From the IMG/VR virus record IMGVR_UViG_3300021295_000003, positions 32,001 through 96,000 of that record: 64,000 nt of DNA; one strand, written 5' to 3'. Made by a program: the position numbers and the translations under genes. Position 1 is the stretch's first letter; each line of letters starts with the position of its first letter. This document shows positions 22,947 to 64,000 of this stretch, in pieces. The DNA is from a virus. Its lineage: Duplodnaviria > Caudoviricetes. The notes under the pieces are model-generated. The model did not search any database and was not told the origin of the DNA. It saw nothing but the letters and a program-made list of their open reading frames with translations.

Positions 22947-22971
22947 AATTAACTTCCTCCTATGTGTTATG

Positions 22972-23043: not shown

Positions 23044-23045
23044 CT

Positions 23046-23085
23046 AAAAAATAAAAAAAATAAACTTCTCCATTTATGGAGAAGC
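23046..23085 (-). terminator. Hairpin plus T-run after major tail gene
   Basis: CTTCTCCAT-AA-ATGGAGAAG followed by long T tracts on the minus strand. Confidence 0.5.
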
Positions 23086-23089
23086 TGGT

Positions 23090-25811: not shown

Positions 25812-25839
25812 AGGTTAAAAACCTCCATTTATAATTTTT

Positions 25840-26301: not shown

Positions 26302-26308
26302 CTCCTAT

Positions 26309-28687: not shown

Positions 28688-29461
28688 TCACCAACCCCTT
28701 AATTCCATATACTCATCAGAATAAACATCAGGCAACACCGGAACAAGAACACACATACCATTCGGGTGGTCTACTGGCCACCAAGACAATGGCATTGCTC
28801 CCATCGCTTCCAATTCATAACACCACGCACAAGTATTAATTCCACTCACACGCCAATAGAACAACGCTTCCTGCCCATAAATAAAAGTCTGATATTCACG
28901 TACAATCCTATTCCTTGCATACTGGGCATTATAATCAATATGATTAACCAAACGCCTCATAGCTCTACGGAAATTACTATGCAAACTAAACATACCAGTT
29001 GTAATAGCAACGTCCTTGTAAAAAGTTGCTTTATTCTTCAAATCAGTATATAATGTATCAGTAACTGTATCAACAGCAGAGTCAATAATAGACTCCAAAT
29101 CAACATCAGTAGAAACAGTTCCAGTTGGAATAGTGTATTCTACATCGAAATCAGCTTGAACATCAGCAATATAAGTCGCAAACAATGACATTAACAAATC
29201 TTTCATATCTGTATTGAAATCAGCGAGTTCCTCCTCAAAGGTTTCAGACAAGATATAAAATTCAGAGTCATACTTATGCAACAAATAAAACTCTTGAAGA
29301 AGACTTAAAGCAATTGCAATGAGTTTTTTAATTTTCTCATCACGTTCCTTCTCTTCTTCTTCCTCAAATTCTTCATCAGAGATTTCATTATCTAATAAAC
29401 CAAAAAACTCCTCATAATTTGGGGCTTCACGAACTGACTTCGGCAAGTCTACCAGCTCCAT
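28688..29461 (-). CDS. Head morphogenesis protein (Mu gpF / SPP1 gp7-like)
   Basis: W...TCAWC...PVDHPNGMC motif, directly after portal. Confidence 0.7.
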   Translation of the reverse strand: MELVDLPKSVREAPNYEEFFGLLDNEISDEEFEEEEEKERDEKIKKLIAIALSLLQEFYLLHKYDSEFYILSETFEEELADFNTDMKDLLMSLFATYIADVQADFDVEYTIPTGTVSTDVDLESIIDSAVDTVTDTLYTDLKNKATFYKDVAITTGMFSLHSNFRRAMRRLVNHIDYNAQYARNRIVREYQTFIYGQEALFYWRVSGINTCAWCYELEAMGAMPLSWWPVDHPNGMCVLVPVLPDVYSDEYMELRGW

Positions 29462-30722
29462 TGTTGATATTATTATAATTCATACCATCGGTTGGTTTTG
29501 AAGTTGAAATATTACCATTCTCATTGGTTATTGTATCGTCACCGTTTCCTGATCCTTCTTCGTTTTCAAGATATGTTCCCTCATTGATTTCAGGGTTGAA
29601 ATTAATCCAAACTTTTCCAGTCATACCTTTTAATTCAAGCATTGTTTGGAATAGTTTTTCCATATAACGTGATAACTTCTCTTGAATATATTCTTGGACT
29701 AATACTCTTCCGCTTTTGTCAGAGTCTAATTGTACTACCGCAGTAGAACGATTAGAGCTACTTGAAGAGTAAATCGCTTCCGGTGTGAATAATCCAACGA
29801 AAATACAATGTTCTAAATAATTTAAGTAATCTTGAACGTCAGGTAAGTTTGTATCTCCAATGAGTTGCGGTTCAATACCGAACGGTAAAGCAGTAACACC
29901 TAAATTATGATAATCTGATAACGCTTCGACCATTGCGTCCACTTCGTCATCTTCTATATTAACTTCCTTACGGTCTTTGTTACCTATTTGTAAAAATAAA
30001 GTGTTTGCTTGTTTAAAAACAATTTGGGGCATCATCTTTGTGAGCATTAAGTGCATATAAGCAAAATCCAAGACATTAGCCACTATTCCTTGTGGTTTAT
30101 CGTGTCTACGGAAAAATGCGGACACCATTAAATCATCAGGTTCAAAATCAAACTCCATTTGCTCATTATTCTTCACAATTTCGTTGAAACGTTTTCTAAA
30201 CCAACCTTTGTTAGTATTTTGGTTTACTTCAACGATTTGTTTGTAACCTATGATTTCTGCTCCGGTTTCATCATCGTAGATTTCTTTTATACGATAATTT
30301 TCCCCATCAAACGCTAATTCACGTAGAGTAACTTCGTTTTTATCTATAACTATCTCACGGAAGTCCACTCCATCAACACAATTATTCCATACAAGATTGT
30401 GCATTAAGGTTGAATAATCTAATCTTTCGTCTTCTTTGATGATGAAATCAATCGCTTCTTGATTATCGCCCTCAATAACCCAACCGCTAATAGATTTAAT
30501 TACTAAATCTTCTAAAATACCATTAACAATTGGGGATTTCTCTGCACATAATCGTAAATTCTTTATTGATGGAATAACAAGGTCTGGGAGTTTCTCTCCC
30601 CAATTAACACTTTCTTGATTTATATTCCCTCTTACATCATCAAAGCCAACATCTGTAATATCAGATTTTTCGCTATTGAATAATCTTGAACCGACTTTGA
30701 TAATTGGGTCAAATATTCCCAT
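29427..30722 (-). CDS. Portal protein (virus A)
   Basis: 431 aa immediately after TerL; SSSSNRSTA and IQEKLSRYMEKLF portal-like segments. Confidence 0.75.
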   Translation of the reverse strand: MGIFDPIIKVGSRLFNSEKSDITDVGFDDVRGNINQESVNWGEKLPDLVIPSIKNLRLCAEKSPIVNGILEDLVIKSISGWVIEGDNQEAIDFIIKEDERLDYSTLMHNLVWNNCVDGVDFREIVIDKNEVTLRELAFDGENYRIKEIYDDETGAEIIGYKQIVEVNQNTNKGWFRKRFNEIVKNNEQMEFDFEPDDLMVSAFFRRHDKPQGIVANVLDFAYMHLMLTKMMPQIVFKQANTLFLQIGNKDRKEVNIEDDEVDAMVEALSDYHNLGVTALPFGIEPQLIGDTNLPDVQDYLNYLEHCIFVGLFTPEAIYSSSSSNRSTAVVQLDSDKSGRVLVQEYIQEKLSRYMEKLFQTMLELKGMTGKVWINFNPEINEGTYLENEEGSGNGDDTITNENGNISTSKPTDGMNYNNINNGAGRLAEVSS

Positions 30723-30723
30723 C

Positions 30724-32043
30724 TTAATACACTCTCACTTTTCTGTAAAAATCTTTTCCCATAGGACGATTTGGTGATAAACTTCCCCTTACACCATACA
30801 CTCCATAAGCCAATGCGTCCATAGCGTGGTCATTAACCTTTACTGGCTCATCAAGAGTCACTCCTTCACGGTTTTTACGATATTTATAACCTTTAATCTC
30901 ACGTATTGTATTAACGCAACGTGGGTGAATATGAATACGAGTCTGCTTTGTAGTAGTGATTTTCGCCTTAACGTCCTTAATTCCTTTCTCCATTGGAAAA
31001 CCATTCTGTACAAACTCTTCAATACGGTCAGGTTCGGCAGCGTCACCGTAACCTGTGTTTAAATGCTCCGGCAGTAATTTATGCTTGAATAACATATCTT
31101 TACACTCTTGAATTAATTCACGGTTTAATAATTTCGCTTTATAAACCTCATCAAGCACATACACTTCATTATCATACCAAGCAAGTAATAAAAAACAACT
31201 TGGATTGTTAAAACCGAAGTCTGCTCCGAAACTGTAAAAATCAAAATTATCACGGACAACAACTGTATCATAGTTCGGATAAATCACATCTGTTAATTTA
31301 CCCCATTGTCCGGCACTATAACGAAGCCATAGCTCGTAATCTTCGTTTTTCAAGTTATCATAATAATCACGCTGAAATTTCGGTAATTTCAAATTCTCAC
31401 TATAATGGAAATGTGCTGATTTCCTCCTTTTCTGAATATTAGCCAAAATTTCCTCATAACTTGGATAAGGTTTGCCCTCTGCGATGGCTTCTTGTTTTTT
31501 AGTTTCAAATTCAGTAGTAGCGTCCGCAAATTCGTGATAACGTTTATAAATCCAATGCTCCTCACTTTCAGGTTGAACTACAAGTAACATTTGCGAATAT
31601 CCTCCTTCACGTTTACTTGCCTCGCCCCTACCAAGACGTAACATTAGTTCAATATAAAACTCGGGACTATTAAGTTCCTCCGCTTGTTCAATGTATATCA
31701 TATCTGCGTTGATTGAACGCACCTTCGAGAGCTCGTCTAACGCACCAAAATACAATTTACTATTGTTACTAAACGTAATAACTCCCTCTGACTTGTTTTC
31801 CTCATAAGGAATACCCAAATCATACAAAATATTACGAATTTCCTTCCAAGAAGTACGCTTCAAAGACGGTAAAGTCTTACGATAAATATAAATTGAAGCG
31901 TCAGGATACTTTAACGCATAAAAAATGACTTTATAACAAGCAAAGATAGTCTTACCTGATCCCGCACTACCCTCTATGAGTAATTCACGTGTACGGTCAT
32001 TAATCCATCTCTGTTGAGTTGGAGTCATCTCTACTGCTACCAT
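30724..32043 (-). CDS. terL: Terminase large subunit, PBSX-like (virus A)
   Basis: Walker A EGSAGSGKT, Walker B-like IYIEQAEE, nuclease GADFGFNNP, DAAEP, DHAMDALAY. Confidence 0.95.
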   Translation of the reverse strand: MVAVEMTPTQQRWINDRTRELLIEGSAGSGKTIFACYKVIFYALKYPDASIYIYRKTLPSLKRTSWKEIRNILYDLGIPYEENKSEGVITFSNNSKLYFGALDELSKVRSINADMIYIEQAEELNSPEFYIELMLRLGRGEASKREGGYSQMLLVVQPESEEHWIYKRYHEFADATTEFETKKQEAIAEGKPYPSYEEILANIQKRRKSAHFHYSENLKLPKFQRDYYDNLKNEDYELWLRYSAGQWGKLTDVIYPNYDTVVVRDNFDFYSFGADFGFNNPSCFLLLAWYDNEVYVLDEVYKAKLLNRELIQECKDMLFKHKLLPEHLNTGYGDAAEPDRIEEFVQNGFPMEKGIKDVKAKITTTKQTRIHIHPRCVNTIREIKGYKYRKNREGVTLDEPVKVNDHAMDALAYGVYGVRGSLSPNRPMGKDFYRKVRVY

Positions 32044-32533
32044 CGTTTACCTCATAATCAACTTCTATCGCTTCTTCTTCGTTGTTATCTGCGTCCACCC
32101 CAGTCATATTCACAATGTTGATTTCAATTGCTTTATCATCTTTGGCGTCTAATTCCAATGTATTTTTACGTTTATTAGCCGCACCGAAACGATTATCCTC
32201 TAAATACATAAGAATACGTGTATCTCCTTCGTCTACTTTCTTCCACATTGCTTTTAATAATCGTTTATGCAATTGAATATCAGCTCTTGCAAGTTCATCG
32301 ATAAACATTATCAAATTTGTACCGGTGTAACCGTCTTCAACATCTTCTCTGTAAAAACGTAACCAATCTTTAAATGTATGTTTAGACCCTCCGGCTGCAA
32401 CAAATGCCTCTGACGCAGTTAAACCACAATTAATCCCATCTTTAACTTTTTTTAAAAGGATTTCTCTATCTAATTTATCTGCAAGTAATCGTGGTTCGTG
32501 TGGTGGTCTGTAATCCGCAGGTAATTTTGCCAT
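32000..32533 (-). CDS. terS: Terminase small subunit (virus A)
   Basis: HTH-like EAFVAAGGSKHTFKDW, directly upstream of and overlapping TerL. Confidence 0.7.
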   Translation of the reverse strand: MAKLPADYRPPHEPRLLADKLDREILLKKVKDGINCGLTASEAFVAAGGSKHTFKDWLRFYREDVEDGYTGTNLIMFIDELARADIQLHKRLLKAMWKKVDEGDTRILMYLEDNRFGAANKRKNTLELDAKDDKAIEINIVNMTGVDADNNEEEAIEVDYEVNDGSSRDDSNSTEMD

Positions 32534-32580: not shown

Positions 32581-32979
32581 TTACAATATATGTGAATTGA
32601 ACAATATTGATAAGACAATAGTTAAAACAGTTAATCCTAATCCAAAAATGGTTAATATCCTATTAATACGGATACGTGACTCTTTTTTGTCCTCTTCTAT
32701 CTTTTCTTCAAATGCTTGTTGTTTTGTTTCAATTGATTGTAATCTTAATTCTAATTCGCTATCGTCTGATTTAGACTCAATTTTTAATTCATTGAAGCCT
32801 TCAAGCACTTTATCGAATTTGTCATTCAATTTATCCATCTTACTGTTTAATTCATCTATTCTTCTTTCCTTAAAATCGCTATGAGCTTCTAATCTTTCTA
32901 TTTTCCTTGATTGAGCTTGTATTTGTTCTTCGTGTAAACATTCTAACGAAGTATTATGATTAGCAGTCATCATCATCAC
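32581..32979 (-). CDS. Coiled-coil protein with C-terminal TM helix
   Basis: Heptad pattern plus hydrophobic C-terminus; visibly homologous to 59228-59596. Confidence 0.7.
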   Translation of the reverse strand: MMMMTANHNTSLECLHEEQIQAQSRKIERLEAHSDFKERRIDELNSKMDKLNDKFDKVLEGFNELKIESKSDDSELELRLQSIETKQQAFEEKIEEDKKESRIRINRILTIFGLGLTVLTIVLSILFNSHIL

Positions 32980-33235
32980 CAGTCACGTATTCATCGTTCA
33001 AAACACCATCATCGGTAACTGGTTCTGCTTTTTTATTTCCTAAAAATTTAAATGTATTCGGATTGTAACTACTCCATACTGCCAATATTATCCCTACTAA
33101 TGCAACAAAGAATGTTGTAAAGGTTGCTTCATCAATGTTAATACCATACTTAACGAGTAATGGGGAAATTAACACATAAATCCATACTGCAATAGTTGAG
33201 ATGTTTCCTTGTGTAAAATCCAATATAATCACCAT
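32960..33235 (-). CDS. Holin-like membrane protein
   Basis: Two TM segments and acidic tail LNDEYVTGDDD; homologous to 58996-59250. Confidence 0.55.
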   Translation of the reverse strand: MVIILDFTQGNISTIAVWIYVLISPLLVKYGINIDEATFTTFFVALVGIILAVWSSYNPNTFKFLGNKKAEPVTDDGVLNDEYVTGDDDDC

Positions 33236-33990: not shown

Positions 33991-34610
33991 CTAATAATAT
34001 ACTATATAAAATAATAATATACTAATATATAAGAAAATAAATATATATAATACTCTAAAAGAAAAAATAAATAATATCCATTCTCCAACACTCAAATAAA
34101 CCCTCACTCCAAAAACCACCAAACACAACAAGACACAATAAAAAAATATAACAACGTTATAAAAAGAAAAAAAGGATACAAACATATGACAATCTGTAAA
34201 AAGCCGCTTTCCCTGGTCCCGTGATGTATTAAAAATTTTAAAAAAATAAAATATTCATTGAAAAAAGCGTATTTTTAAGCTTTTTTTTATTCAAATATTA
34301 GAAAACTTATTAAAAAACGTGACTTTATAGAATAGAAAACAATAAAAAAACTAAAAATTAAACGTTAAAAAAAAATAAAAAAAAGATTGAAAACATAACA
34401 ATAAAAAAATAATACGTTAAAAAATCAGTAATAAAGATATTAAAAAAATAAGATATGTTGCGGGCCTTGGTGGTGCCCGTAACATATGAGTATATTATTA
34501 ATAGGTTTTAAGGCGTTTGCTTTTTTTTATTGTAGTATTTTGTATATTATTTTTAGTATTGTTCTTAATATACTATATAAGATTAGGAATAATATAATAT
34601 ATATGAAGGT

Positions 34611-35276
34611 TTAGACCTCCCGTATATATTGTTTTGTTTTGCATTCATAGTATATTTTCTTGGTGGTTTTGCCGTTGCGCCCGTAATATGGTTTTATTGT
34701 CTTTTTAAAGTAATGGTTTACGGTTTTAATATAATAGTTATATAGATATTTAAAAGTTGTTTTCCTTGTTATGACGGTTTTATGGTTCCCGTTTTTGTAT
34801 TGGGTTTTTTCTGTTTTATAGTGTTTTGAATACTCTGTTATTAATTGGTTTTCTTTATACGCGTTGGTGCTAATTCCGTTTATTTTGTTTTTTATGGTTT
34901 GACTGTCTGTAAACTCTTCTAAAATATCTAATAATAGTATTGATAGTTCGTTTTTATTGTTGGTGTCACGGATTAGTATAAAAGTTTCTGGTTTTACGTT
35001 TGGAATTACTATAAAATTATTATAATTTGCTAAACGGTTAAACCTTGGTTTATGTTTGGTTGCGGTGGTGGTGCTATATACGGCGGCGGTTTCTATATAA
35101 AAACGGTTTCCGTCAATATCTATAAAAGCCCCGATAATAGTATTGTAACTATAAGCTAAATTTAAATTTGTATTTATGTCTAATAATGCCGCGCTTGTAT
35201 AATCTACGCGGTACTCGTTGTTAAATCCGTCTTTAATTAGATTTAAACTAATATAAGGTGTTTCTTTAATTAACAT
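34611..35276 (-). CDS. Hypothetical early protein
   Basis: 221 aa, preceded by AAGGACGTGTTAAAAAATG leader. Confidence 0.7.
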   Translation of the reverse strand: MLIKETPYISLNLIKDGFNNEYRVDYTSAALLDINTNLNLAYSYNTIIGAFIDIDGNRFYIETAAVYSTTTATKHKPRFNRLANYNNFIVIPNVKPETFILIRDTNNKNELSILLLDILEEFTDSQTIKNKINGISTNAYKENQLITEYSKHYKTEKTQYKNGNHKTVITRKTTFKYLYNYYIKTVNHYFKKTIKPYYGRNGKTTKKIYYECKTKQYIREV

Positions 35277-35477
35277 TTTTTAACACGTCCTTTAATTGTT
35301 TTTTTTAAATATAGTGTTTTTTTACGTGGTTTTATCTTATCCACGTTATAAAAAAGCTTTATAAACTTAAAATATACAATAAAATAAGATTAAAAATATT
35401 TATTGCATAAATAAAATAATTGGAGGTTAAAATTAATTTTAACCTTTTAAAGCTGTAATAAATTTTAAACACGTCCT

Positions 35478-35708
35478 TTAAAATTCTATTTGCTCGAACT
35501 CTATGTTTAATTTTAAATTAAAATCTAATAATAAACGTTTAATTTCATTAAAATAGTATTTTTTATCTTTTTTATTTTCAAATAACTTATAAAAATTAAT
35601 ACAATCATTCAAACGTATTTTACTAACATATGAACAACTGTTTAAATCATTTATAAGTATATTGTTACTTACTCCTTCGATAAGTTTTATAAAATCTTTG
35701 TTTTTCAT
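35478..35708 (-). CDS. Hypothetical early protein
   Basis: Same AAGGACGTGTTAAAAATG leader places the start at 35708 (MKNKDF). Confidence 0.55.
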   Translation of the reverse strand: MKNKDFIKLIEGVSNNILINDLNSCSYVSKIRLNDCINFYKLFENKKDKKYYFNEIKRLLLDFNLKLNIEFEQIEF

Positions 35709-35884
35709 TTTTAACACGTCCTTAAAAAATAAAATTTTTATTGCTATAAAAACGCTTTCATTATTAACGGCGGTTTTATGCCGTTAAACGCCTTTACTTT
35801 AACGTAACCTTGACGGTTACACGCGTTTAAAATTTTACCTTTAAACGCGGTGTCTAACTATTGATAATAATAGTTATGTTACTG

Positions 35885-35903
35885 TACTATATAAATGTTT
35901 TGG
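35885..35903 (-). promoter_or_regulatory. Archaeal BRE-TATA promoter
   Basis: CCAAAACATTTATATAGTA on the minus strand, nearly identical to the site at 40749-40767. Confidence 0.6.
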
Positions 35904-36440
35904 TATAATGTAATATTTATTTTACACTTAAAATTAAAAATAGTTTATCTGGTCCCGTTAAACGTGCGGCACGTGTTAAACGTCCCGTTAATTGAATAAA
36001 TCAATATTTTTAAAGTTAGTTTATTTTATTGTTAAAAATTGTTAGGCGTTTACGTGCCGTTTAAATTAACATAACGTTTAATTAAATCAATACTTTAAAC
36101 ATTAACTATTAAAATAAATAATCATATCTTTAATAATTCTAACTAATAACAATAAAAACAATAAAGTTAAACTATTAAATATAGATTAACTAATAAAAAA
36201 AGATTACTTTTTAAAAATTTTAACGGCGGACCCGTCAATATAAATGTTTAAAGGCGGGATCCGTTACGGCGTTATAAAATTTAAAATTTTAAAAGATCAG
36301 TACGGGACAATATAAAATTTTATTTTTTTAAAAGATCAGCTTTCCAGGTAGTTTATCAGCGGCAGCAGCGTCTGTTTCGGGTCCTGGTCCTGATAGGTTA
36401 ATCTTTTCACGTGAGTGAGTTGGTGAGAGTGTTTTTTTAC

Positions 36441-36808
36441 TTTAAGTTATGGTAGATAACTCGGCGGAAAAATTTTTTTTCTTTAAGTTTATGGTAGATA
36501 ACTGGGGCGTTTTTGTTTTAAGTTATGGTAGATAGATTTTGGAAAATTCGGCTTTAAGTCTTGGTAGATAGATTTCAAAAGTTTTTCTTTTAAGTTATGG
36601 TAGATAACTTTGAGGGTTTTTGTTTTTTTTTTAAGTTTTGGTAGATGGAGTGTGCTTGGATTTTTGTTTTAAGTATTGGTAGATGGTTTTTTAAGTTTTC
36701 GTAGATGGATTTGGCGTGTTTTTAAATTTATGGTAGATGGATTTTTGATTTTGGTTTAAGTGTTGGTAGATAGGTATGGAATGCTTTTTTTAAGTTTATG
36801 GTAGATGA
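36441..36808. repeat. Array of 11 bipartite repeats TTTAAGT-N2/3-TGGTAGAT with variable spacers
   Basis: Copies start near 36441, 36482, 36517, 36553, 36589, 36630, 36668, 36690, 36721, 36755, 36789. Confidence 0.92.
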
Positions 36809-37137
36809 TTTTTTAGTATTTTTTAGGGTTTTTCAAGTGTTTCAGCTGCTTTTCAAGTGTTTTTTCAGCAGATAAAATTAAAAAATAGTAATTTTCAATG
36901 ATTTTAAGATAATTTGTTAAAAAAAAGAGTAGTTTTCTGTTTGGACGTGTCAAGGAGAGAGAAATGTTTGTGCAAAGACGTGTAAAATTGCACAATATTC
37001 CTCTCTCCTCTTATGTGTTTTCTTTTAAGTGTTTTTCCTTTTAAAATAGTTAGACTTTTTTTAAAAAAAACAATTTAAAAGACGTGTAGAACTATCCTTA
37101 TGGACAGTTCAGTTAAATTATTTGTACTTGAATGTAT

Positions 37138-54481: not shown

Positions 54482-56425
54482 TGAGTGAAAAACAATGGCT
54501 AAATTTAGATAAAGTATTAGATTGGATATTCCCTTTGTTCTTGATTGAGGTTTTTGTATTTGGGAATATTTGTTTAATTATATTCGTATTACAAGAGTTG
54601 GGAGTGATTTAATGACAGAGAATAATTTTGAATGTGGTAAATGTGGTTATTTTGATGGAATGTGTTGTCGGAAAACTGGTGAAGATAGATATGAAGATGA
54701 AATCGTAAATGATTGCACATATTTTGATTTAAGTATTTACTATGGTGGTTAAATGACTGAAAAACGAGAGTATAGTTTATGTATTGACTGTAAGCATCAA
54801 GATGGCACTTGGGTATCTGATAGAGAAGTAGATACTTGGTGTAATATAAAAAAAGGAATTGATTGTGATGAAGTATTTGAATGTGATATGTTTGAGGGGG
54901 TTTGAATGACTGAAAAACGATTTGTTGATGATGGATTTGAAGCGATTGATGAACAGAGTTTTACAGATACTGAAACCGATAAAACTTATTATGTTGATTA
55001 CTTTGATGAAATTATTGATTTATGTAATGAGTTAAACGATGAAAATCAAAGACTCAAAAAGGAACTGGAAGAATGCAAGAATAATAAATTATTCAGTCGC
55101 AGAGAACTTGAAAGAGAAAACAAGGAACTCAAATATCATTTAAACAGAACAGAAAAAGAATTAAAAGAATATAAAGAATTTATGAGTTTAGGGTGATTTT
55201 GAATGACTGAATTTACTATTGGTAATATTTGTAAAGAAGTGCAAAGAATAAGGTTTGATTTGGAAAATGAAGATGTTGCAAGTGCAATTAAAAGATGTGA
55301 TAATCTTGATGAGTTATTATGTGAAATTGAAGATGGAAAACATACATTAGTTATAGGAGATACTGTAATTACAATAAATTAAAATGGTGATGTGGAATGA
55401 CTGAAAATCAATTAACTTACTATAAAGGTCGGCATAAAAATCCACGATGGATACATTACAATAAAAAATCTAAAAAATATACTATTAATCGTGTTGTTCA
55501 TAATTTCAGAACTTATTTCGGAAGTTATGATACATTAGAAGAAGCCGAACGAGTTGTTGAATTTTTGAACAAAAATAATTGGGATAAAAATAAATTAAAG
55601 GAGATTGAGAATTGACTGAAAAACGATTTATACTTGATGATGATGGAATAGTTACTGATATGCTTGATTTATCTATGTATATAGATAATGAAGATTGTTG
55701 TGAGAAGTTGAATGAGTTACACGAAGATGTGGAAAGACAAAGAGAATTTAAATTTAGTGCTATTAGACAAGCAAATCGTATAGATAAAGAAAATGAGCAG
55801 TTAAAAGAACGGAACAATCGACAAGCCAAACAATTAGATAATATCTACCAGTTAATCGAACAGAGAGATTGGAGAGCATTATCTGACATATTAAATGACT
55901 TCAAAAAAGCAGAAGAACAATTACAAAAAGAATGGAAGTGTTACGAATGACTGAACGATTCATAATCGATGATGCTGGGACACTAATAGATATGCAGACA
56001 AGAGATACCTATGATTATGTATCCGATGTATGTGGACTCTTGAATGTGTTACATTCACGAAATAAAAGACTTGAAGAGAAAATACAAAGAGAACGAACCT
56101 CATTTACAAAAACACACGAAAGATGGAGTAAAGAAGCCGAAACGAAAATCAAAGAATTATCAGAAGAGAATGAGCATATCAAACAAACAATCAAAAACAT
56201 GATGGAAACTGAAAGAACAGAACTCGGACAATCAGTCCTCCGACAATTAGGGGAAGCGATACAATGACTCAACTACAATTTGGACAACAATATTGCAATA
56301 CTTGTAAACAATACAATCCTCAAAGTATGAGAAACAACTGGGACGGTTGCAAATTACACGGTACCATTGTCTTACCATATAGTCACGCTTGCAGATATTA
56401 TGAAAAAAAGGAGAAAGAACAATGA
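54481..56425 (+). other. Tandem array of 9 small genes with shared 5' ends (MSEKQW, MTENNF, MTEKRE, MTEKRF, MTEF, MTENQ, MTEKRF, MTERF, MTQL)
   Basis: Starts at 54481, 54612, 54753, 54906, 55203, 55397, 55612, 55947, 56264; consensus ATGACTGAA(AAACGA). Confidence 0.8.
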
Positions 56426-56685
56426 ACGAACCATACAGTATAAAAGGAACACTAGTAAAAGACCACATACACCACAAAAGCTACAACATGACCAGCAAAA
56501 TCGACGCAGAAAACCTCTACAATACACTAACCACCTACCACAAAATACACATCCTAAACAAAAACATAGAAACACAATACGACAACATAACCAAACAAAT
56601 AATCCAACTACAACTATCAGTTAAGATATTGGAACATGAAATCAACACACTCCAGGAAGTGGTCACAAAATGCAAGTCACAATAG
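56422..56685 (+). CDS. Hypothetical protein; first gene with the virus-B k-mer signature
   Basis: AGGAG RBS, ATGA overlap; contains the first CTAG (56452) and CATG (56487) seen. Confidence 0.6.
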   Translation: MNEPYSIKGTLVKDHIHHKSYNMTSKIDAENLYNTLTTYHKIHILNKNIETQYDNITKQIIQLQLSVKILEHEINTLQEVVTKCKSQ

Positions 56686-57347
56686 ATTCAAGAGAACAAA
56701 CCAGAATAGACTCCGCCAAGAAATGCTTCAAAGAACAAGGATTAGAAGTAACTGTTGAAGAACTGGAAATAGGAGACTACATCTTCACTGATGGCAAAAA
56801 CGAAGTATGCTTTGAATTCAAACTAACAAGCGACTTCATAGCATCAATACAAGACGGAAGAGTCTTCAACCAAAGCATCGAAATGGCTGAAAACTATGAT
56901 TACGCATTCGTAATAATCCATGGAGACCTACCAACAAGAAGCAAATGCATAGCAATGAGCAGAAACTATCATGAAGTGAATGTCTTCCAATACATCGGAG
57001 CAATAAGCAGCTTAAACCGTTACGTCACAGTACTACAATGTTACAGTCCATTCATAAATGAAAGTTACTACACCATGATGACACAAGCCAAGAAGTGTTT
57101 ATCCAATAAACCAATAGTAAAGAAATTCCCCAGGAAACACCGAAACCCAGCAATGAATTACTTATGCTACTGTGTATACGGTTTGAATTATAAAAGAGCT
57201 GCTGAGATAGTGGAAAACCTAGACTTACATACCCTGGAAGACCTACTACTATTAGACTGTGAACAATTAACACGAGTTCCTGGCATCGGACTGAAACTAG
57301 CAGCTAAAATAATCAAGACAATTGAAGATGACAGTTATGAGGATTAA
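56670..57347 (+). CDS. ERCC4/XPF-family nuclease with HhH motif (possible resolvase)
   Basis: IDSREQ, LEIGDY, EFKLTSDFIASIQDGR, VPGIGLKLA. Confidence 0.9.
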   Translation: MQVTIDSREQTRIDSAKKCFKEQGLEVTVEELEIGDYIFTDGKNEVCFEFKLTSDFIASIQDGRVFNQSIEMAENYDYAFVIIHGDLPTRSKCIAMSRNYHEVNVFQYIGAISSLNRYVTVLQCYSPFINESYYTMMTQAKKCLSNKPIVKKFPRKHRNPAMNYLCYCVYGLNYKRAAEIVENLDLHTLEDLLLLDCEQLTRVPGIGLKLAAKIIKTIEDDSYED

Positions 57348-57672
57348 ATCTATTCAAACCAAATATGGAACAATAACTGAAAAACATGGATGGTACTATG
57401 TCAGCAGTAACGAACATGGACACAGAGTAATATTCGAAGATTACCATAAATGCACCTTACTTCCATGGGCAAACATCCATCACAGGAACTTCAACAAACA
57501 TGACAACCGAATAGAAAACCTCCAACTACTCAGTGCATCTGAGCATCAGAAAATCCACAAAGCAATCTACCGACCATCAGAACAACACAAACAAGCCATA
57601 AGCAACGGTTTAAAAGGCAGAAAACTGGATATAATCCATCGAATAAACTTAAGAAGGAGTAAAAAACGATGA
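57322..57672 (+). CDS. HNH endonuclease with NUMOD3-like tail
   Basis: HRVIF...IHHRNFNKHDNRIENLQLL...H; SEQHKQAISNGLKG. Confidence 0.85.
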   Translation: MKMTVMRIKSIQTKYGTITEKHGWYYVSSNEHGHRVIFEDYHKCTLLPWANIHHRNFNKHDNRIENLQLLSASEHQKIHKAIYRPSEQHKQAISNGLKGRKLDIIHRINLRRSKKR

Positions 57673-58160
57673 GTATTAACCAACTAATAAACAAATACTA
57701 TAAACCTGATGGGAAAAACAAAACAGGAACAATACGAGTAAACAAAGCAGAAAAACACACACCTGAATACAATAAAAAACTAAAAAGAGAACAATACCGT
57801 AGAAACAGACACTTAATACTGGACCAACTACTACTTGAAATTCCTTTTACATTAGAACCAAACCAGGTTACTCAAATAAGATACTGGATAGACAAATTCA
57901 ATGATAATTTCAAAGAATTTCACTACAACAGCAGCAACGAAACAATCATATTAGCATTTATCATGATACAGTGGAAACAGAAATACCCAAAATTATATGT
58001 AGCTAATATGCCAATCTGCAAAGAATACGAACTCACAACACCGAAATTCGAACTAATACAAAACAGATTAATATTCCAATTAATGAAAACTACTGAATTA
58101 ACATATAACCAAAGCAAATACGTTAATCATAACCTATTGGAGAAAAGCCACTATGACTAA
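57669..58160 (+). CDS. Hypothetical helical protein
   Basis: AGGAGT RBS, ATGA overlap. Confidence 0.6.
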   Translation: MSINQLINKYYKPDGKNKTGTIRVNKAEKHTPEYNKKLKREQYRRNRHLILDQLLLEIPFTLEPNQVTQIRYWIDKFNDNFKEFHYNSSNETIILAFIMIQWKQKYPKLYVANMPICKEYELTTPKFELIQNRLIFQLMKTTELTYNQSKYVNHNLLEKSHYD

Positions 58161-58386
58161 TAATATAATGAGGAAGAGTGAAATGGAGAAATGGAATAAC
58201 CCACGTTTATTCTACTTAAACTCCATCACAAAACCCTTACCTACTACATGCCCTGAATGTCATGGAGACTTAACCACCAATGATGATCAGGATGAAACAC
58301 TATGCAGTAGTTGTGGTTTAATAGTTTCAGCAAGTATTGAATATGTTGCTGGAATTCGTATAGATCTTCCTTACGGTAGACATTAA
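58153..58386 (+). CDS. TFIIB-type zinc-ribbon protein
   Basis: CPECHG...DETLCSSCGLIV. Confidence 0.75.
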   Translation: MTNNIMRKSEMEKWNNPRLFYLNSITKPLPTTCPECHGDLTTNDDQDETLCSSCGLIVSASIEYVAGIRIDLPYGRH

Positions 58387-58824
58387 ATTGGAATGTTGTA
58401 GTATAGGCTGGTGCGTACAAATATTTTTATATCATAATCAATCATAGGCAATCTTGTATTTCGGTTTTCTTCTGTGTTACGTATATTTTATCGTTTTTTC
58501 GTATCTCTTGGATTTAATTTCGATTTAACCTTCCAAATAATATCGTATTTGAAACACTCTATTTCGTTTTTTATAAAACTACCATAAATAAAAGAGCATT
58601 TTAGCTAATTTCATTAAAAAATAATACTGGTAAACCTACAACTATTAATGTCTACTATTTTTCATTTATCATTTATATATGCAGGTTAAAAGATTCATAA
58701 ACTGGAACTATGGACCACTGTTCATGGTTTTTAAATATAACTAACTATCCTTCTACAAATGGTGTGAAAACAAAAAAAGAATGTGCAACTCATTCTACCT
58801 GCCATGACTCACACCACAAAATAT

Positions 58825-58958
58825 GCCTTGTACAAGAGAATTGTACCAGGAAATAAAGTATTTGTAAATCTCTAATTTCAAGTAAAGATAATCATTTTAT
58901 TATCTCTACAATTGTGACTAATGGTGCAATAACTGGGGTGCAACTCCCCAGCAAGGCA
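58825..58958 (+). ncRNA. Putative structured RNA with tRNA-like acceptor stem and T-arm
   Basis: GCCTTGT/GCAAGGC+A, TGGGG-TGCAACT-CCCCA, inner TTGTACCA/TGGTGCAA stem. Confidence 0.45.
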
Positions 58959-58995
58959 ATTCTTTTATAAAACTAATTTTACGAGTTGATCAACA

Positions 58996-59250
58996 ATGAA
59001 CCCTGACATAATAGGAAACCTAACAACAATAATAAAAATAATAATCATGACTATTGCTCCAGCAATAGCAGTATACATTGGAACTGATGAACAAACCGTA
59101 GCAGCATTCTTAACTGCAATACTCACATTCGCATTGGCAATAATAGATGCACGTTACCCAAACAATTTCGGTGATAACAAACCAGTTGCAGCAGAATCAG
59201 AAATACTCAACGATGAGTACGTAACTGGTGATGAGGATGACAGCCAATGA
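58996..59250 (+). CDS. Holin-like membrane protein (virus B)
   Basis: Two TM segments, LNDEYVTGDED tail shared with 32960-33235. Confidence 0.55.
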   Translation: MNPDIIGNLTTIIKIIIMTIAPAIAVYIGTDEQTVAAFLTAILTFALAIIDARYPNNFGDNKPVAAESEILNDEYVTGDEDDSQ

Positions 59251-59596
59251 ATGCTACCGAGAAGACCAACTACAAGGTCAATCTAGGAAAATCACAGAAC
59301 TAGAAGCACGTGCAGATTTCAAAGACAAACGGATAGATGAACTATATCTTAAAATGGAAAAAATAGAGTTAAAGATGGATAAATTGAATGAAAACGTTAA
59401 CGCATTACTATTACAATCACAACAAGGTGACACTGACTTAGAACTACGATTAAAAGCAATAGAAACAGAACTAGCCTTGCAAAAACAAACCAACATAGAC
59501 AATCACAACCGTGTAAGCAGCCTATTAGCAGTAGTAGGAGTTGGTTTAACACTAATTACAATACTAATAAATGTTTACTTCAATATGATACATTAA
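59228..59596 (+). CDS. Coiled-coil protein with C-terminal TM helix (virus B)
   Basis: QSRKITELEARADFKDKRIDEL versus QSRKIERLEAHSDFKERRIDEL at 32581-32979. Confidence 0.7.
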   Translation: MMRMTANECYREDQLQGQSRKITELEARADFKDKRIDELYLKMEKIELKMDKLNENVNALLLQSQQGDTDLELRLKAIETELALQKQTNIDNHNRVSSLLAVVGVGLTLITILINVYFNMIH

Positions 59597-59622
59597 AAAC
59601 AAAAAAACTAGAACTGGGAAGG

Positions 59623-60207
59623 ATGGTTTATATTATGCAAATAGAAACAGTTAAAATCACGGAGTTAATAAGCCCTGACTACAACCCAAGGCACATAACA
59701 CCTGAAGCAATGGAAGGGTTAAAACAATCTCTAAAAGAATTCGGATATATAACTCCAATCATAGTAAACCGACATAATAACCACATCATAGGTGGAAATC
59801 AAAGATACGAAGCATTAAAACAACTAGGATACGAAACCGTTGATGTAATCTACACTACTATTACAGATATTAACCGTGAAAAAGCATTAAACATCCGACT
59901 AAATAACAACAGGGGAGACTGGGATATAGGAAAACTAGACACTATATTCGAAGACCTGGAACTAACAGGATTCGACTTAACACTAACAGGATTTCAAACA
60001 GAAAACCTACAACCAATCAAAACAGATAATGAAATTCCAAGTAATGAAACAATCACTGCTGACATAAATACTGGATTAAAAATTGAAAATAAAAAACCTG
60101 AAGTAGCAGCTGAAAAACCTAAAACTACTCCAGGACCTACTGAAAATAATGCTGAAAACATAATGATCTGTCCACATTGTGGACATGAAATAAAATTAAA
60201 AAAATGA
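59623..60207 (+). CDS. ParB/Srx-like N-terminal domain protein
   Basis: YNPR...LKQSLKEFGYITPIIVN...IIGGNQRYEAL...EKALNIRLN, C-terminal CPHCG. Confidence 0.85.
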   Translation: MVYIMQIETVKITELISPDYNPRHITPEAMEGLKQSLKEFGYITPIIVNRHNNHIIGGNQRYEALKQLGYETVDVIYTTITDINREKALNIRLNNNRGDWDIGKLDTIFEDLELTGFDLTLTGFQTENLQPIKTDNEIPSNETITADINTGLKIENKKPEVAAEKPKTTPGPTENNAENIMICPHCGHEIKLKK

Positions 60208-60223
60208 AATTTAATGAAAAAAT

Positions 60224-60862
60224 GTGAAAAAAAGACTGATTGATATGGAAGAATGCTACTGGGAGCAACCATTACTCGGTAAAAATGGAAGTACTGAAAA
60301 TGGAACTCGAAAATATAGAGATGTGTATTTTAACCATAATGGACACATCACTTGTGAACAGATAGCTAAAATGTTTGATACAGATAAAAGAAACATTGAG
60401 AACCATAAATCAAATTATAACTGGGATGGCGTATTAGCTGATAAAAAAGCATATCTTCAAAGGAAACGTGATGAGAAACGTGAAGAGAATTATCAGAAAC
60501 ATATTGATAAAGATTTCAAAAATGCTGATACAGTATTAACCATTAAATATGCTCAAATTCAAATGGCAGCTATCAAAGTTGGTCTTATGAAACCAAATGG
60601 TATGATTATACCTGAAGAGTTAACTTTCAAAGAAGCATGGAAAACCATAGACAATACTGATGTTAAAACATTACAAACTGTTATTATGCGTGACCTGGAA
60701 AAAGCTGGAAACATCAATGATAAACAAGTACATAATGTACATGGTGAAATGGATTTAACTCAAACAATCAAAGATGCAGATAATACTGCAAGCATCGATG
60801 ATTTATTTGAATTATACAAAGAGGATGAGGAGGAATCCATGAATGGAAATGACACCAAATGA
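60224..60862 (+). CDS. Terminase small subunit-like (virus B)
   Basis: HTH-like CEQIAKMF...YNW, directly upstream of TerL. Confidence 0.55.
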   Translation: MKKRLIDMEECYWEQPLLGKNGSTENGTRKYRDVYFNHNGHITCEQIAKMFDTDKRNIENHKSNYNWDGVLADKKAYLQRKRDEKREENYQKHIDKDFKNADTVLTIKYAQIQMAAIKVGLMKPNGMIIPEELTFKEAWKTIDNTDVKTLQTVIMRDLEKAGNINDKQVHNVHGEMDLTQTIKDADNTASIDDLFELYKEDEEESMNGNDTK

Positions 60863-62210
60863 TTATAAAAAAGAACTCAACCTCAACTACCAATTCTATA
60901 AAACACTATTAGATAAAACAATCTACCATAACCCTTACATTGAATTAGATCCATACCCATTACAAACATTTCCAATCATTGAAGCTAACAAACCAACAAC
61001 AACCTATAATGATGAATTAATAGGTGCTGGAGGATTCGGTGGAAAAACAATACTAGGTGCAATGTTAGCAGCACAATACCTAGAACATAGTAAATACCAA
61101 TGCCTGGTAACAAGATTACACTACCAGGAACTAACTGGACCAAATAGCATATGGAGTATACTAACTGAATGGTGCAATACTACATGTGAAATAAACAGTA
61201 CGAAATTATACATCAAATCTCCAGCAGGAGCATTAATTCAATTCAAAGCATTTGACCATGAAAAAAGAAAAGAAAAAGTCAAAAGTGAATCATACACCAG
61301 GATAGTAAATGATGAGGCTTCCGAATTAAAAGAATCAATACTAAGATTCCTATTCCGAAGTTTACGTAAAGAAAAAAACAATCCACTCCCATTAAGTTTC
61401 ATAAACTTATCAAACCCTGGTGGAGACAGTACTGAATACTTAGCAGACACTTATGTTAATGGAGATAAACCATACTTCGCATTAGATTGGAGACACAACC
61501 CATACATAGACAAAGAACAATATAAAGCAAGTCTTGAAAACCTGGATTATATCGACCAACAATACCAACTACACGGTAACTGGAATTACAAACCAAAAGT
61601 TGGTGACTTACTATCACGTGCTGAAGGAGAGGCACAGCTAATAACTAACTTAACTACACCATTATACTATGAAATCATAGGCATTGACTTAGCTGGAAAA
61701 GGAAAAGACATGTTTGCTGTAGTTTGCTATGATTACTTAGCTAATGGATTGGAGTATATTAAAGATTTCAATCAAACTCAATCACATAACCCTGAATCAT
61801 TACTATTAGATTTCATTGTTAAACATAATCCCAATCCCAACCTTCCAATGACTAGTGTAATAGTTATAGAACAAGAAGGTGGTGGAAGTCCTGAATATGC
61901 TAAAAAATACTTTAAGGACATGATTAACGATTATGGTTACAACATACCTGTAATACTGAAAAAACCATCAGGAAGCAAATACCAAAGAGCAAGACCATTA
62001 ATGCACAGCATAAAATATGGGAATACTAAACTAAACCAGGAATCAGAATACATGGATGATTTCATAGATGAGGGCATACAATTATCACCTGATGGAAAAG
62101 GTAGAAGTCCAAACCTGGTAGATAGTGCAAGTTTAGCAAGGAATTATTTACATACTGATATTTTAGGAAATACTACAACAGTTACTGTTGGAGCAAGAAT
62201 CGGAGGATAA
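60843..62210 (+). CDS. terL: Terminase large subunit (virus B)
   Basis: GAGGFGGKT, IVNDEASEL, SNPGG, NPYID, GIDLA, EQEGGGS, KYQRA. Confidence 0.92.
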   Translation: MEMTPNDYKKELNLNYQFYKTLLDKTIYHNPYIELDPYPLQTFPIIEANKPTTTYNDELIGAGGFGGKTILGAMLAAQYLEHSKYQCLVTRLHYQELTGPNSIWSILTEWCNTTCEINSTKLYIKSPAGALIQFKAFDHEKRKEKVKSESYTRIVNDEASELKESILRFLFRSLRKEKNNPLPLSFINLSNPGGDSTEYLADTYVNGDKPYFALDWRHNPYIDKEQYKASLENLDYIDQQYQLHGNWNYKPKVGDLLSRAEGEAQLITNLTTPLYYEIIGIDLAGKGKDMFAVVCYDYLANGLEYIKDFNQTQSHNPESLLLDFIVKHNPNPNLPMTSVIVIEQEGGGSPEYAKKYFKDMINDYGYNIPVILKKPSGSKYQRARPLMHSIKYGNTKLNQESEYMDDFIDEGIQLSPDGKGRSPNLVDSASLARNYLHTDILGNTTTVTVGARIGG

Positions 62211-63633
62211 AAAGATATTTATGATTATAACAGGAACACCAGTAGATAATCGTATTGCACGTGTAGAAAAAAGCATAGCAAACAATCTACAAAACAAAAA
62301 CTTATTTCAAAGTGAAAATAAGGACACTGCAAGTAATGTAATAGAATTAAAACCACCAATACCAATGAGTGATTGTTTATTCGTATTTGAAAACTCATCA
62401 CATGTAGCAAAAAGTTGCAGGATATTAGCTGCAGACATCATTTATAATGAAATCACATTAACCTATGATACAATAGAGGAACCAACAGAGCATGAAATCA
62501 ACAAGTTAAACAAAATCAATAATTACATCCATGACAATATAGATGAGTTCTATAACATGGCAGTAGATTGGTATTATGCAGGATGGTGTGCAATGGAATA
62601 CACCTGGAATAATGTCAGTTTCAAACTAAAACAAATTCCAATCCATTCATGTAAAATCATCAAAGTTCCACTTCAAGGTTTCACAGTATACCTATTGAAA
62701 CAACAAATCAATAGTACCACTAAATACTTTAAAATCATGGGTGAAACTTATCCTGATGATCTACTTTATTATGGTGGTGAAAAATTAGGTTATGCCTCCT
62801 TGATGGGTGGTGACAATATCTACCAATTTTTCAGCTTACCAAAATGGATACAAGATTATAAGAAAATACTCACTGAAATTGCAATCAGTGCAAGTGATTA
62901 TAAAACCGTATCCAATGGTAACATTAGTAGTGGTGTATTGAATATTAACCTGGAGCCTCAATTGAAACCACCATTACAATATGACCCTAATAATGGTGAA
63001 GTGATACCACAGGATAACATCAAATCAAGAGAAGAAGTGATTAGTGAGGAATTACAATCTGCAAACGGTGGAACTGCAGTAATATTCACTGAATCCAACA
63101 GACCATTAAACATGGATTACGTAAGCTTAGCAAATAACAATCACAGTTACTTATCTGACTTAAGCTACAAATGCCAACAAGCAGTATTAAACGATTACAA
63201 CATACCATTAGTACGTTTAATGATTAACAGTGAAAAAGAATCCATGAATAGTAATAAAACACAGTCAATATGGGAAATATACACATTAAACTTACAAAAC
63301 GAACAAAAACCATTCAAACTATTCATAAGAGAATTAATCCAGGACCTATATGATATTGATGTTACTGTTGAAATCAGTACTCCAATATTCAGTGACAGGC
63401 GTGAAATTGAAGTAGGTTTAATCAGCCAAGCTTGGAATGATGGAGCATTAACCTTGAAACAGTTTGTCACAGGTTTAAGTGAATACTTAAAAGTGATTGA
63501 CTTGAATGAATATGATTTCACAGTTAACCCTGAAATATGGGATTACAGGAAAATAGACAATCCTCAAAACATTAGTCCTGATGACCTCGCACTGATAGAT
63601 GAAGTGGAGGCACAGTTAAATGAGATTAACTAA
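62188..63633 (+). CDS. Portal protein (virus B)
   Basis: Follows TerL; NGNISSGVL, QAVLNDYNIP, WNDGALTL portal-like segments. Confidence 0.75.
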   Translation: MEQESEDKKIFMIITGTPVDNRIARVEKSIANNLQNKNLFQSENKDTASNVIELKPPIPMSDCLFVFENSSHVAKSCRILAADIIYNEITLTYDTIEEPTEHEINKLNKINNYIHDNIDEFYNMAVDWYYAGWCAMEYTWNNVSFKLKQIPIHSCKIIKVPLQGFTVYLLKQQINSTTKYFKIMGETYPDDLLYYGGEKLGYASLMGGDNIYQFFSLPKWIQDYKKILTEIAISASDYKTVSNGNISSGVLNINLEPQLKPPLQYDPNNGEVIPQDNIKSREEVISEELQSANGGTAVIFTESNRPLNMDYVSLANNNHSYLSDLSYKCQQAVLNDYNIPLVRLMINSEKESMNSNKTQSIWEIYTLNLQNEQKPFKLFIRELIQDLYDIDVTVEISTPIFSDRREIEVGLISQAWNDGALTLKQFVTGLSEYLKVIDLNEYDFTVNPEIWDYRKIDNPQNISPDDLALIDEVEAQLNEIN

Positions 63634-64000
63634 CAAGCATGACATTAAAAACTATCTCGGTAACCGTAGAATAGCTGTAATTCAAAAAGCACACTACACT
63701 ACACATACATTAATCCAATTCGTAAACAACCGTTTAATAGATAAAAAGATAATGGAATGGAATAATGAATACACTACTGACATAAGAGACCCTTTTAAAC
63801 AAGAGAATATTGAATCACAACTCTCAGGTTACAATGTCATGGCAACCAGCAAAGACTTACAAAGAATACTAAAACACAGTGCAATTCAACGTAATAGTTT
63901 CACTGAAAACGAAGCCAGGAAAGTAATACAATCAACTGCTGGAGACCTAACCCAAATAGAAGCCCAAAGAATAGTGAAAAACTTAGACTATGTTGGAAAT
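63620..64000 (+). CDS. Partial gene after portal, probably head morphogenesis protein
   Basis: GGAGG RBS, ATG 63620, frame open to the window end. Confidence 0.5.
   Translation, partial: MRLTNKHDIKNYLGNRRIAVIQKAHYTTHTLIQFVNNRLIDKKIMEWNNEYTTDIRDPFKQENIESQLSGYNVMATSKDLQRILKHSAIQRNSFTENEARKVIQSTAGDLTQIEAQRIVKNLDYVGN

Follow-up and report, generated by a model that had tools for sequence, protein, structure and literature searches.

The 64,000-bp window analyzed here (contig positions 32,001–96,000; below, numbers that carry a "c" are contig positions and all others are window positions) belongs to a record in which two distinct circular genomes of co-occurring Methanobrevibacter-type viruses, alpha and beta, have, in all likelihood, been wrongly joined via a repeat, R. 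We infer that this join most likely arose during assembly and not in a cell. The record as a whole comprises one contig of 104,717 bp that is scored as 100% complete in the public listing; by self-comparison, its two ends share a 151-bp overlap that contains one mismatch, and we know of no k-mer size that this overlap would fit. Splitting the contig at R yields two circles, that is, alpha (61,235 bp) and beta (43,331 bp). The preliminary description had proposed a chimera of two related viruses; two genomes are indeed joined at R, but they are only distantly related.

R is the only long internal repeat of the contig. Self-BLAST and a per-base comparison identify it as a direct repeat of 739 bp with 99.3% identity and an exact run of 678 bp. 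The copy in the window (R2; 54,900–55,638, + strand; c86,900–87,638) is the alpha/beta junction, and its partner (R1; c25,665–26,403) is located outside the window, 61,235 bp upstream of R2. The edges of the repeat are sharp: the five mismatches between the copies are all located ≤3 bp from the left edge or ≤58 bp from the right edge. Three small ORFs (96, 59, and 72 aa) lie within R, as do the initial nine codons of a 112-aa ORF; the genes of R have no significant match to a Pfam or PHROG family. The position of R is alike in both viruses, between the early genes and the ERCC4/HNH nuclease block; an integrase-like gene precedes the repeat copy by 1.4 kb in beta and by 8.5 kb in alpha.

Alpha and beta also share a 69-bp match (88% identity), and the right part of R is found at 97% identity in a third virus (G006), the sequence of which ends inside R. 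As R occurs at 97–99% identity in three Methanobrevibacter-type viruses that are unrelated in other respects (in G006, its right part), gene flow among them has been very recent. When IMG/VR and the JGI metagenomes were scanned with the protein of an R gene, two exact R patterns, and the right flanks of alpha and beta, no independent contig with R and both flanks was retrieved; G006 was the only record found. A 117,090-bp JGI contig was considered as a possible combination of alpha and a G006-type virus and was rejected; the G006 proteins peak at contigs of 77,646 bp and never occur at 117,090 bp.

In the window, alpha occupies positions 1–54,899 (whole tract, c26,404–86,899), a motif-purged tract with the gene order of two relatives, G001 and G002. 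The late region of beta starts at 55,639 and continues on the + strand to 64,000, as identified by motif density and by genes that match only relatives with the beta type of terminase; past the window, the beta tract extends to c104,566 and then round to c25,664. Alpha and beta are both head-tail viruses, with methanogens of the Methanobrevibacter type (rumen or gut) as hosts. The alpha circle is siphovirus-like: its tail is long and non-contractile, its tape measure is 2,911 aa in length, and its large terminase (TerL1) is of the PBSX type; its late arm (lysin, tail, head, TerL1, TerS1) is on the − strand and its early arm is on the + strand from 41.3 kb. This divergent layout is native, as it also occurs in G001 and G002; a second misjoin at the inverted late arm was considered and discarded, with no flanking inverted repeats detected by self-BLAST. 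The beta circle encodes a sheath, a baseplate, and a large terminase of the psiM2/MSTV1 type (TerL2), and all of its genes share one strand, early genes first, then those for packaging, tail, and lysin.

An integrase-like gene, a 667/668-aa early protein, an ERCC4 nuclease, and the small gene pair are present separately in each circle, as is a late set made up of a TerS, a TerL, a portal candidate, a capsid protein, a tail, and a C39-type lysin; the MuF-like head gene and head protease were identified for beta only. Homologues in beta were identified for approximately 10 of the 70 alpha genes, with no head or tail gene among them. These inventories bear on the proposal that the record is one virus or provirus with two head-packaging systems, or a nested/tandem provirus formed by site-specific integration. 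As the preliminary description had noted, the gene run crosses the junction seamlessly, with no att site and no host gene; the seamless run, the lack of host genes anywhere in the contig, and the integrase-like gene in each unit are what such a proposal would accommodate. Two full early and two late modules, however, mean that nothing is shared; each junction consists of a 739-bp coding module in mid-operon, not of an att core beside an integrase. The nested provirus that had been offered as an alternative is not supported as one bounded by att sites: the contig closes on itself and has neither short att cores beside an integrase nor host flanks; also, none of five complete or near-complete relatives contains both TerL types. 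We therefore regard a single virus or provirus as highly improbable.

The packaging genes of alpha are on the − strand. TerL1 (30,724–32,043; Walker A, GSAGSGKT) matches Pfam Terminase_3 (9.3e-17), Terminase_6N, and Terminase_3C, with scores of 61.7 bits for PF04466 (cut-off 23.2) and 39.9 bits for PF17288; as its ATPase and nuclease domains both exceed the threshold and it has the Walker A motif, it is a large terminase of the Terminase_3/PBSX type. The TerS1 candidate (32,000–32,533) is directly upstream and has a weak profile match (phrog_4102, 1.8e-5). The portal candidate (431 aa; 29,427–30,722) is assigned by position and by Atlas predicted-structure look-alikes in portal clusters (TM 0.62–0.69). 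A coiled-coil gene with a C-terminal TM segment (32,581–32,979) and a holin-like 2-TM gene (32,960–33,235) were matched by BLASTP to their beta copies.

In beta, on the + strand, the nuclease block contains an ERCC4-type nuclease with an HhH domain (56,670–57,347; Pfam ERCC4 4.4e-15, HHH_5), a paralogue (39% identity) of the alpha gene at c29,079–29,795, and an HNH endonuclease (57,322–57,672; Pfam HNH_3 1.7e-7). The beta copies of the holin-like (58,996–59,250) and coiled-coil/TM (59,228–59,596) genes, identified by homology to the alpha copies, are followed by a ParB-N-like nuclease-domain protein (59,623–60,207; Pfam ParB_N 7.1e-11, phrog_620 1.1e-43) and the TerS2 candidate (60,224–60,862), which is assigned by position and a weak match to phrog_509 (7.8e-5). 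TerL2 (60,843–62,210; Walker A, GAGGFGGKT) is of the psiM2/PhiF3/MSTV1 type: it matches phrog_979 (1.1e-38) over residues 59–438, and tblastn aligns it to the annotated TerLs of PhiF3 (1e-50), MSTV1 (2e-42), and psiM2 (3e-34); its Pfam Terminase_3 score is 19.2 bits, under the 23.2 cut-off. A profile that covers the ATPase and nuclease regions, together with the Walker A motif, identifies TerL2 as a large terminase. The portal candidate (481 aa; 62,188–63,633), the true start of which is probably at codon 12 of the called ORF, is positioned between TerL2 and the MuF-like gene and has homologues of 70–71% identity in two loci of relatives (L016, L009); its Atlas feature look-alikes include portal clusters, a lead only. 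The MuF-like head-morphogenesis gene (63,620–64,000 and on to c96,522) matches phrog_2468 and phrog_2662 in its C-terminal part and is followed by the protease and MCP. Thus, the second packaging module is beta's own (ParB-like nuclease, TerS, TerL, portal, MuF, protease, MCP), and the second capsid and tail set that the preliminary description had proposed to look for past 64 kb is present in beta, with protease and MCP after the MuF-like gene and with a sheath and baseplate.

The observations on packaging in the preliminary description fared well. The two TerLs are of different types, as it stated, and mutually unrelated by BLASTP (E 0.074). Its two TerS candidates have weak profiles but fit by position; its two portal candidates are assigned by position and Atlas look-alikes, and neither has a Pfam, PHROG, or PDB sequence match. 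The gene pair said to precede each module is homologous for both members: the holin-like proteins (91 aa in alpha, 84 aa in beta) are 41% identical (E 2e-12) and have LNDEYVTGD in common, and the coiled-coil/TM proteins (132 and 122 aa) are 45% identical (E 5e-35) and have MTAN...QSRKI in common.

The two genomes also differ in composition. CATG occurs once in alpha vs 169 times in beta, CTAG 0 vs 61 times, and a set of nine restriction-type motifs has 12 sites in alpha vs 666 in beta; none of the nine is present within R. The last beta-type site is located 67 bp before R1, and from 56,452 in the window onward, motif density reaches ~15 per kb. An unbiased two-changepoint fit (CATG+CTAG; log-likelihood ratio, 204) places the switches at c25,600 and c88,150; the range for the window-side changepoint is c87,800–88,150 (55,800–56,150). 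Of the 24 GATC sites in alpha, 20 are contained in CTGATCC/GGATCAG; of the 30 in beta, none is (Fisher p = 3e-11). GC content, GC skew, and AT skew were too noisy to discriminate as junction markers. The k-mer change reported earlier is, therefore, real and much larger than chance would produce, but the junction is at 54,900–55,638, slightly to the left of the 56,422 given for it; the compositional discontinuity coincides with R. The same signatures are found in small independent contigs: the motifs are purged in L040 and L041 (TerL1 99% and 92%) and not purged in L004 and L005 (TerL2 93% and 91%). Restriction-motif maps can, then, place chimera junctions to ~100 bp without reads.

Complete relatives that carry end repeats have one module each: G001 (63,736 bp) and G002 (57,783 bp) contain TerL1 without TerL2, and G004 (52,135 bp) is TerL2-type and contains beta genes only. 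In both G001 and G002, the run of genes homologous to those left of R2 (c76605 to c85408) continues on the same strand with homologues of the genes to the right of R1 (c27820, the ERCC4 gene c29079, and c29764), which then converge on the tail end; this is the gene order of the alpha circle, not of this contig. In the Logan/ENA assemblies, the longest contig with exact alpha proteins is 61,653 bp, and the longest with the exact tape measure is 61,376 bp (61,235 + 141). Five exact beta proteins, including that of an early-A gene and that of the gene that spans the edge between R and the right flank of beta, reach a longest contig of 43,490 bp, that is, the beta circle + 159 bp, not + 141. The content of the 43,490-bp and 61-kb contigs was inferred from their lengths and the shared exact proteins.

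The assembly join would arise as follows. Alpha and beta would each natively carry R at the same place, and its 678-bp exact match would cause a short-read assembly graph to take the form of a figure of eight; with each loop walked once, the result would be one apparent circle of 104.6 kb with R at both crossings. The contig has the features expected of such a chimera: the same direct repeat, longer than the usual k-mers and inserts, is present at both junctions, and each loop is a complete genome with single-genome counterparts elsewhere (G001 and G002, with the gene order of the alpha loop, and G004, with beta genes only). A real cointegrate, formed when a homologous crossover within R in a co-infected cell produces an abundant 104.6-kb heterodimer circle, would yield an identical graph, so the contig alone provides no evidence of physical linkage. 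A single crossover would leave just such a 99.3% direct repeat at both junctions, the contig closes on itself, and R, the 69-bp match, and the right part of R in G006 indicate that these viruses exchange DNA. However, because the short-read graph is identical with or without a cointegrate, the contig lends it no support; 104.6 kb far exceeds the 52–64 kb of complete relatives of either head type and would not be packageable as a unit; the motif signatures are wholly unmixed up to the repeat; and the same exact proteins are found on ~43.5-kb and ~61.4-kb contigs in other assemblies. We consider a cointegrate, and with it the recent recombinant that the preliminary description gave as an alternative, unlikely as the source of the record, and it is rather improbable that a 104.6-kb heterodimer episome, the product of a crossover at R that linked two methanogen viruses (one siphovirus-like, one myovirus-like), is real in cells; if it were, two unrelated virion-building programmes would be linked on one replicon, caught during module exchange. 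Should the data be long reads, the 739-bp repeat would be spanned and the join would be real. We favor the false join because the repeat is present at both junctions, the two sub-genomes are complete, the switch at the repeats is sharp, complete relatives have a single module, and the same proteins occur on ~61-kb and ~43-kb contigs.

Left uncorrected, the record would distort genome-size and gene-content statistics and inferences about host and defence; it would also distort taxonomy, as its two TerLs and tail types are from different lineages. With the record divided at R, readings such as two virion modules around a single replication core, or GATC purged from part of a genome, become ordinary. 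Chimeric or over-collapsed metagenome contigs from viruses that co-exist and have a highly similar region in common have been benchmarked (PMC5610896). As in those chimeras, distinct genomes are fused at a near-identical stretch and the contig is seamless at the gene level; unlike them, the path here closes as an apparent circle that contains both whole genomes and is scored as 100% complete. For alpha, TerL1 is 73% and 70% identical to those of G001 and G002, which have the divergent early/late arms and gene order of the alpha circle, and 45% identical to that of Caudoviricetes sp. vir249 (51 kb; host Methanobacteriales); all three relatives are without R, and the set of purged motifs differs in each. 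For beta, TerL2 is 27–34% identical (E 1e-50 to 3e-34) to the TerLs of psiM2/psiM100, PhiF3, and MSTV1, head-tail viruses of Methanobacteriales, and the single-strand gene order of beta resembles theirs; beta is larger than these (43.3 kb vs 26–39 kb) and differs from them in having a sheath (weak PHROG match), a baseplate wedge (phrog_6, 2.8e-50), and a Peptidase_C39-like lysin.

Since the answer hinges on sequence outside the window, we analyzed the whole record, a single contig of 104,717 bp (contig coordinate = window coordinate + 32,000). Its first and last 151 bp match except for one mismatch (position 25), and joining them gives a circle of 104,566 bp; IMG/VR lists the record as linear because of this mismatch. 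Self-comparison identifies R, a direct repeat of 739 bp, as the sole long repeat; its copies are located at contig positions 25,665–26,403 (R1) and 86,900–87,638 (R2; window positions 54,900–55,638). The copies are 61,235 bp apart; therefore, partner exchange at R yields two circles, alpha (61,235 bp; R plus contig positions 26,404–86,899) and beta (43,331 bp; R plus contig position 87,639 round to 25,664). Each circle contains one early and one late module, with its own integrase-like gene (c77253 in alpha and c23172 in beta, named by contig coordinate; 39% identical), 667/668-aa early protein (45% identical), Peptidase_C39-type lysin (71% identical), ERCC4+HhH nuclease, HNH/NUMOD protein, small gene pair, TerS, TerL, head, and tail. 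Homologues in beta exist for only ~10 of 70 alpha genes, and head and tail genes are not among them.

The preliminary description had reported two packaging modules with differing large terminases, each preceded by a homologous gene pair, and the Pfam and PHROG matches agree. The alpha module (minus strand) includes a TerS candidate (window 32000–32533; phrog_4102, 1.8e-5), TerL1 (30724–32043; Terminase_3, 9.3e-17, with Terminase_6N and Terminase_3C; Walker A motif GSAGSGKT), and a 431-aa portal candidate (29427–30722) that had no match in profile searches and whose Atlas model resembles portal clusters (TM 0.62–0.69); these are followed by a MuF-like gene, a capsid protein (Phage_capsid_4), and a 2,911-aa tape measure. 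The beta module (plus strand) includes a ParB-N-like protein (ParB-like nuclease domain; 59623–60207), a TerS candidate (60224–60862; phrog_509, 7.8e-5), TerL2 (60843–62210; phrog_979, 1.1e-38; Walker A motif GAGGFGGKT), a 481-aa portal candidate (62188–63633), and a MuF-like gene. Pairwise comparison of TerL1 and TerL2 detected no similarity (E 0.074). The second capsid and tail set that the preliminary description had proposed to look for is present beyond 64 kb: a protease, the MCP (phrog_1623), a weak match to a sheath, and a baseplate wedge (phrog_6, 2.8e-50). The pair 5′ of TerS (holin-like plus coiled-coil/TM; 32581–33235, minus strand, in alpha and 58996–59596, plus strand, in beta) is homologous between the modules (41% and 45% identity; E 2e-12 and 5e-35), and the sequence motifs quoted for it earlier are present. 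Every relative that we read (including G001, G004, L009, L010, and L016), siphovirus-like and myovirus-like alike, has at least a homologue of the coiled-coil/C-terminal-TM gene just 5′ of its terminase genes; homologues of the holin-like 2-TM partner (acidic tail LNDEYVTGD) were detected in no relatives other than G001 and L045, both alpha-type.

Window positions 55,639–64,000 are the beginning of the late region of beta, with the gene order small coiled-coil genes, ERCC4/HhH nuclease, HNH endonuclease, holin-like pair, ParB-like protein, TerS, TerL, portal, and MuF; this module packages the 43-kb genome of beta itself and is unconnected to the packaging set of alpha at 29–33 kb. Alpha also contains a tRNA-Trp (CCA; 22971–23043, minus strand) inside its structural module and a stretch with few ORFs and 25–29% GC (34000–37000), located between the end of the packaging genes and a minus-strand gene block, that could be an origin or regulatory region; imperfect direct repeats of ~130–260 bp occur at 36434–36815.

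The two circles differ in restriction-type motifs. Of 24 GATC sites in alpha, 20 lie inside CTGATCC/GGATCAG, compared with none of the 30 beta sites (Fisher p = 3e-11), and a systematic k-mer contrast identified much stronger differences (alpha and beta counts, respectively): CATG (1, 169), CTAG (0, 61), GAATC (1, 88), CACTG (1, 84), CATCC (0, 58), CTGAAG (0, 49), GAGAC (0, 39), CTCCAG (0, 32), and CGTC (190, 17). Along the contig, nine such motifs total 666 sites in beta, a density of ~15.6 per kb, and 12 sites in alpha. The final dense site (25,598) is 67 bp before R1, R contains no sites, and on the right side of R2 sites resume at 87,957 and 88,198, with high density from 88,452 onward. 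When CATG and CTAG alone are used, an unbiased two-changepoint fit places the switches at 25,600 and 88,150 (support intervals 25,600–27,200 and 87,800–88,150; log-likelihood ratio 204). Thus, the k-mer change noticed previously is real: the halves of the record differ in restriction-avoidance history, and the switch points coincide with R. The purge in alpha extends over 60.5 kb and is near complete, with GATC surviving almost only in CTGATCC. In independent contigs, TerL1 fragments (99% and 92% identity) are purged and TerL2 fragments (93% and 91%) are unpurged.

The purged character includes R and ~0.5 kb rightward in beta, where only 1.5% of 739-bp windows are without any of the nine motifs; this suggests that beta gained the R patch from a purged alpha-like virus. 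Two other beta regions have a very low motif density (contig 11,000–12,000, 1 site in the kb; 22,000–24,000, 3 per kb) and may be further imports from purged viruses. The R copies differ at five positions, the third base and four within the last 58 bp, leaving an exact run of 678 bp; their edges are sharp, with identity dropping to background in 1–2 bases on both sides. R encodes ORFs of 96, 59, and 72 aa, without recognizable family, and the nine initial codons of a fourth. R1 has TAG (contig 26,346) where R2 has TGG (window 55,581), so the 72-aa ORF is shortened to 61 aa in the copy tied to the right flank of alpha; the start codon of the following gene is ATG in R1 and TTG in R2. The edges of R coincide with gene starts inside a tandem run of small paralogous genes (window 54753–56267; 50, 96, 112, and 111 aa) that start with MTEKRF..DD.G and have a coiled-coil end; the paralogous 5′ ends may be a recombination substrate that shifts R between viruses. 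G006, an otherwise unrelated and unpurged IMG/VR contig (44,964 bp) with proteins present in Methanobrevibacter sp. MAGs, terminates within R: it matches R positions 524–739 at 97%, followed by 137 bp resembling the alpha sequence to the right of R1. With this third carrier, whose contig likewise breaks at R, R is a mobile mosaic module among these viruses.

In IMG/VR, TerL1-type loci have alpha genes only and TerL2-type loci have beta genes only. We read three complete records with terminal repeats in full: G001 (63,736 bp) and G002 (57,783 bp) are alpha-type, without TerL2, and G004 (52,135 bp) is beta-type. In G001 and G002, homologues of the alpha early genes c76605, c77253, c80390, c81094, c81691, c84038, c84899, and c85408 (left of R2 here) come first; within ~1 kb, on the same strand, are homologues of c27820, c29079 (ERCC4), and c29764 (right of R1), and this second group is convergent with the late arm at its tail end. 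This is the order in the alpha circle; in the contig, the same two groups are 61 kb apart. Judged by gene order, we take G001 and G002 to be decisive for the linkage question. It also follows that the divergent layout of the early and late arms in alpha is native, and we rejected a second misjoin as its source. In G004, genes like the early beta genes to the left of R1 and genes like the beta genes to the right of R2 are together 5′ of a TerL2-type packaging module, and all share a single strand, which matches the arrangement of the beta circle; this synteny supports closure of the record.

Exact-sequence look-ups of proteins provide circumstantial evidence that alpha and beta genes would be on separate ~61-kb and ~43-kb contigs elsewhere. 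TTG/GTG starts are written as L or V in JGI and as M in Logan and ENA, so the M versions report the longest non-JGI contig. For each of five exact beta proteins (three structural, one early, and the 112-aa protein that crosses R at its right edge), the longest contig is 43,490 bp. For exact alpha proteins (two structural and one early) the longest is 61,653 bp, and for the alpha tape measure 61,376 bp, 141 bp more than the alpha circle, an excess that we take to be the end overlap usual for circular MEGAHIT contigs; ~60.8 kb (alpha) and ~42.9 kb (beta) are expected if the graph broke at R. A JGI contig of 117,090 bp contains exact alpha proteins and two tape-measure-cluster proteins (2,911 and 869 aa) and may be another over-assembled record of the alpha virus; a look-up of G006 proteins rejected alpha plus a G006-type virus.

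We consider it likely that the record is an assembly join of two separate viruses that both carry R, the explanation that the preliminary description favored. Two circles with a common exact stretch of 678 bp would produce a figure-of-eight short-read graph, and one walk through it would yield the 104.6-kb circle. A true crossover cointegrate of alpha and beta would yield the same graph, so the contig is no evidence of physical linkage; however, the sizes of complete relatives with either head type (52–64 kb), the motif signatures that are unmixed right up to the repeat, and the ~61-kb and ~43-kb contigs all favor separation, and we regard a cointegrate as rather improbable. The join would merit more credit as a real one if long reads underlay the assembly; to our knowledge, a 151-bp overlap with one mismatch fits no k-mer size. 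Far less probable is that one virus carries both packaging systems, or that the nested provirus previously offered as an alternative is present and bounded by att sites: the junctions are not att-like, host flanks are absent from the record, and no relative has both packaging modules.

The evidence indicates rumen or gut Methanobrevibacter-type methanogens as probable hosts: relatives of TerL2 are located in Methanobrevibacter and Methanobacteriaceae MAG contigs, the phage collection gives a single DNA match, to a Methanobacteriales virus, and the lysins are Peptidase_C39-like (Pfam). The purge pattern resembles a strain-specific imprint left by the restriction systems of the host; G001 purges a different set (0 CATCC, CTGAAG, GAGAC, CTCCAG, and CCWGG, but 217 CATG), and G004 has 0 GATC and 0 CTAG. 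Among annotated proteins, TerL2 is closest to the terminases of PhiF3, MSTV1, and psiM2/psiM100, all Methanobacteriales viruses; TerL1 is closest to that of Caudoviricetes sp. vir249 (also with a Methanobacteriales host), with bacterial PBSX-type terminases next.
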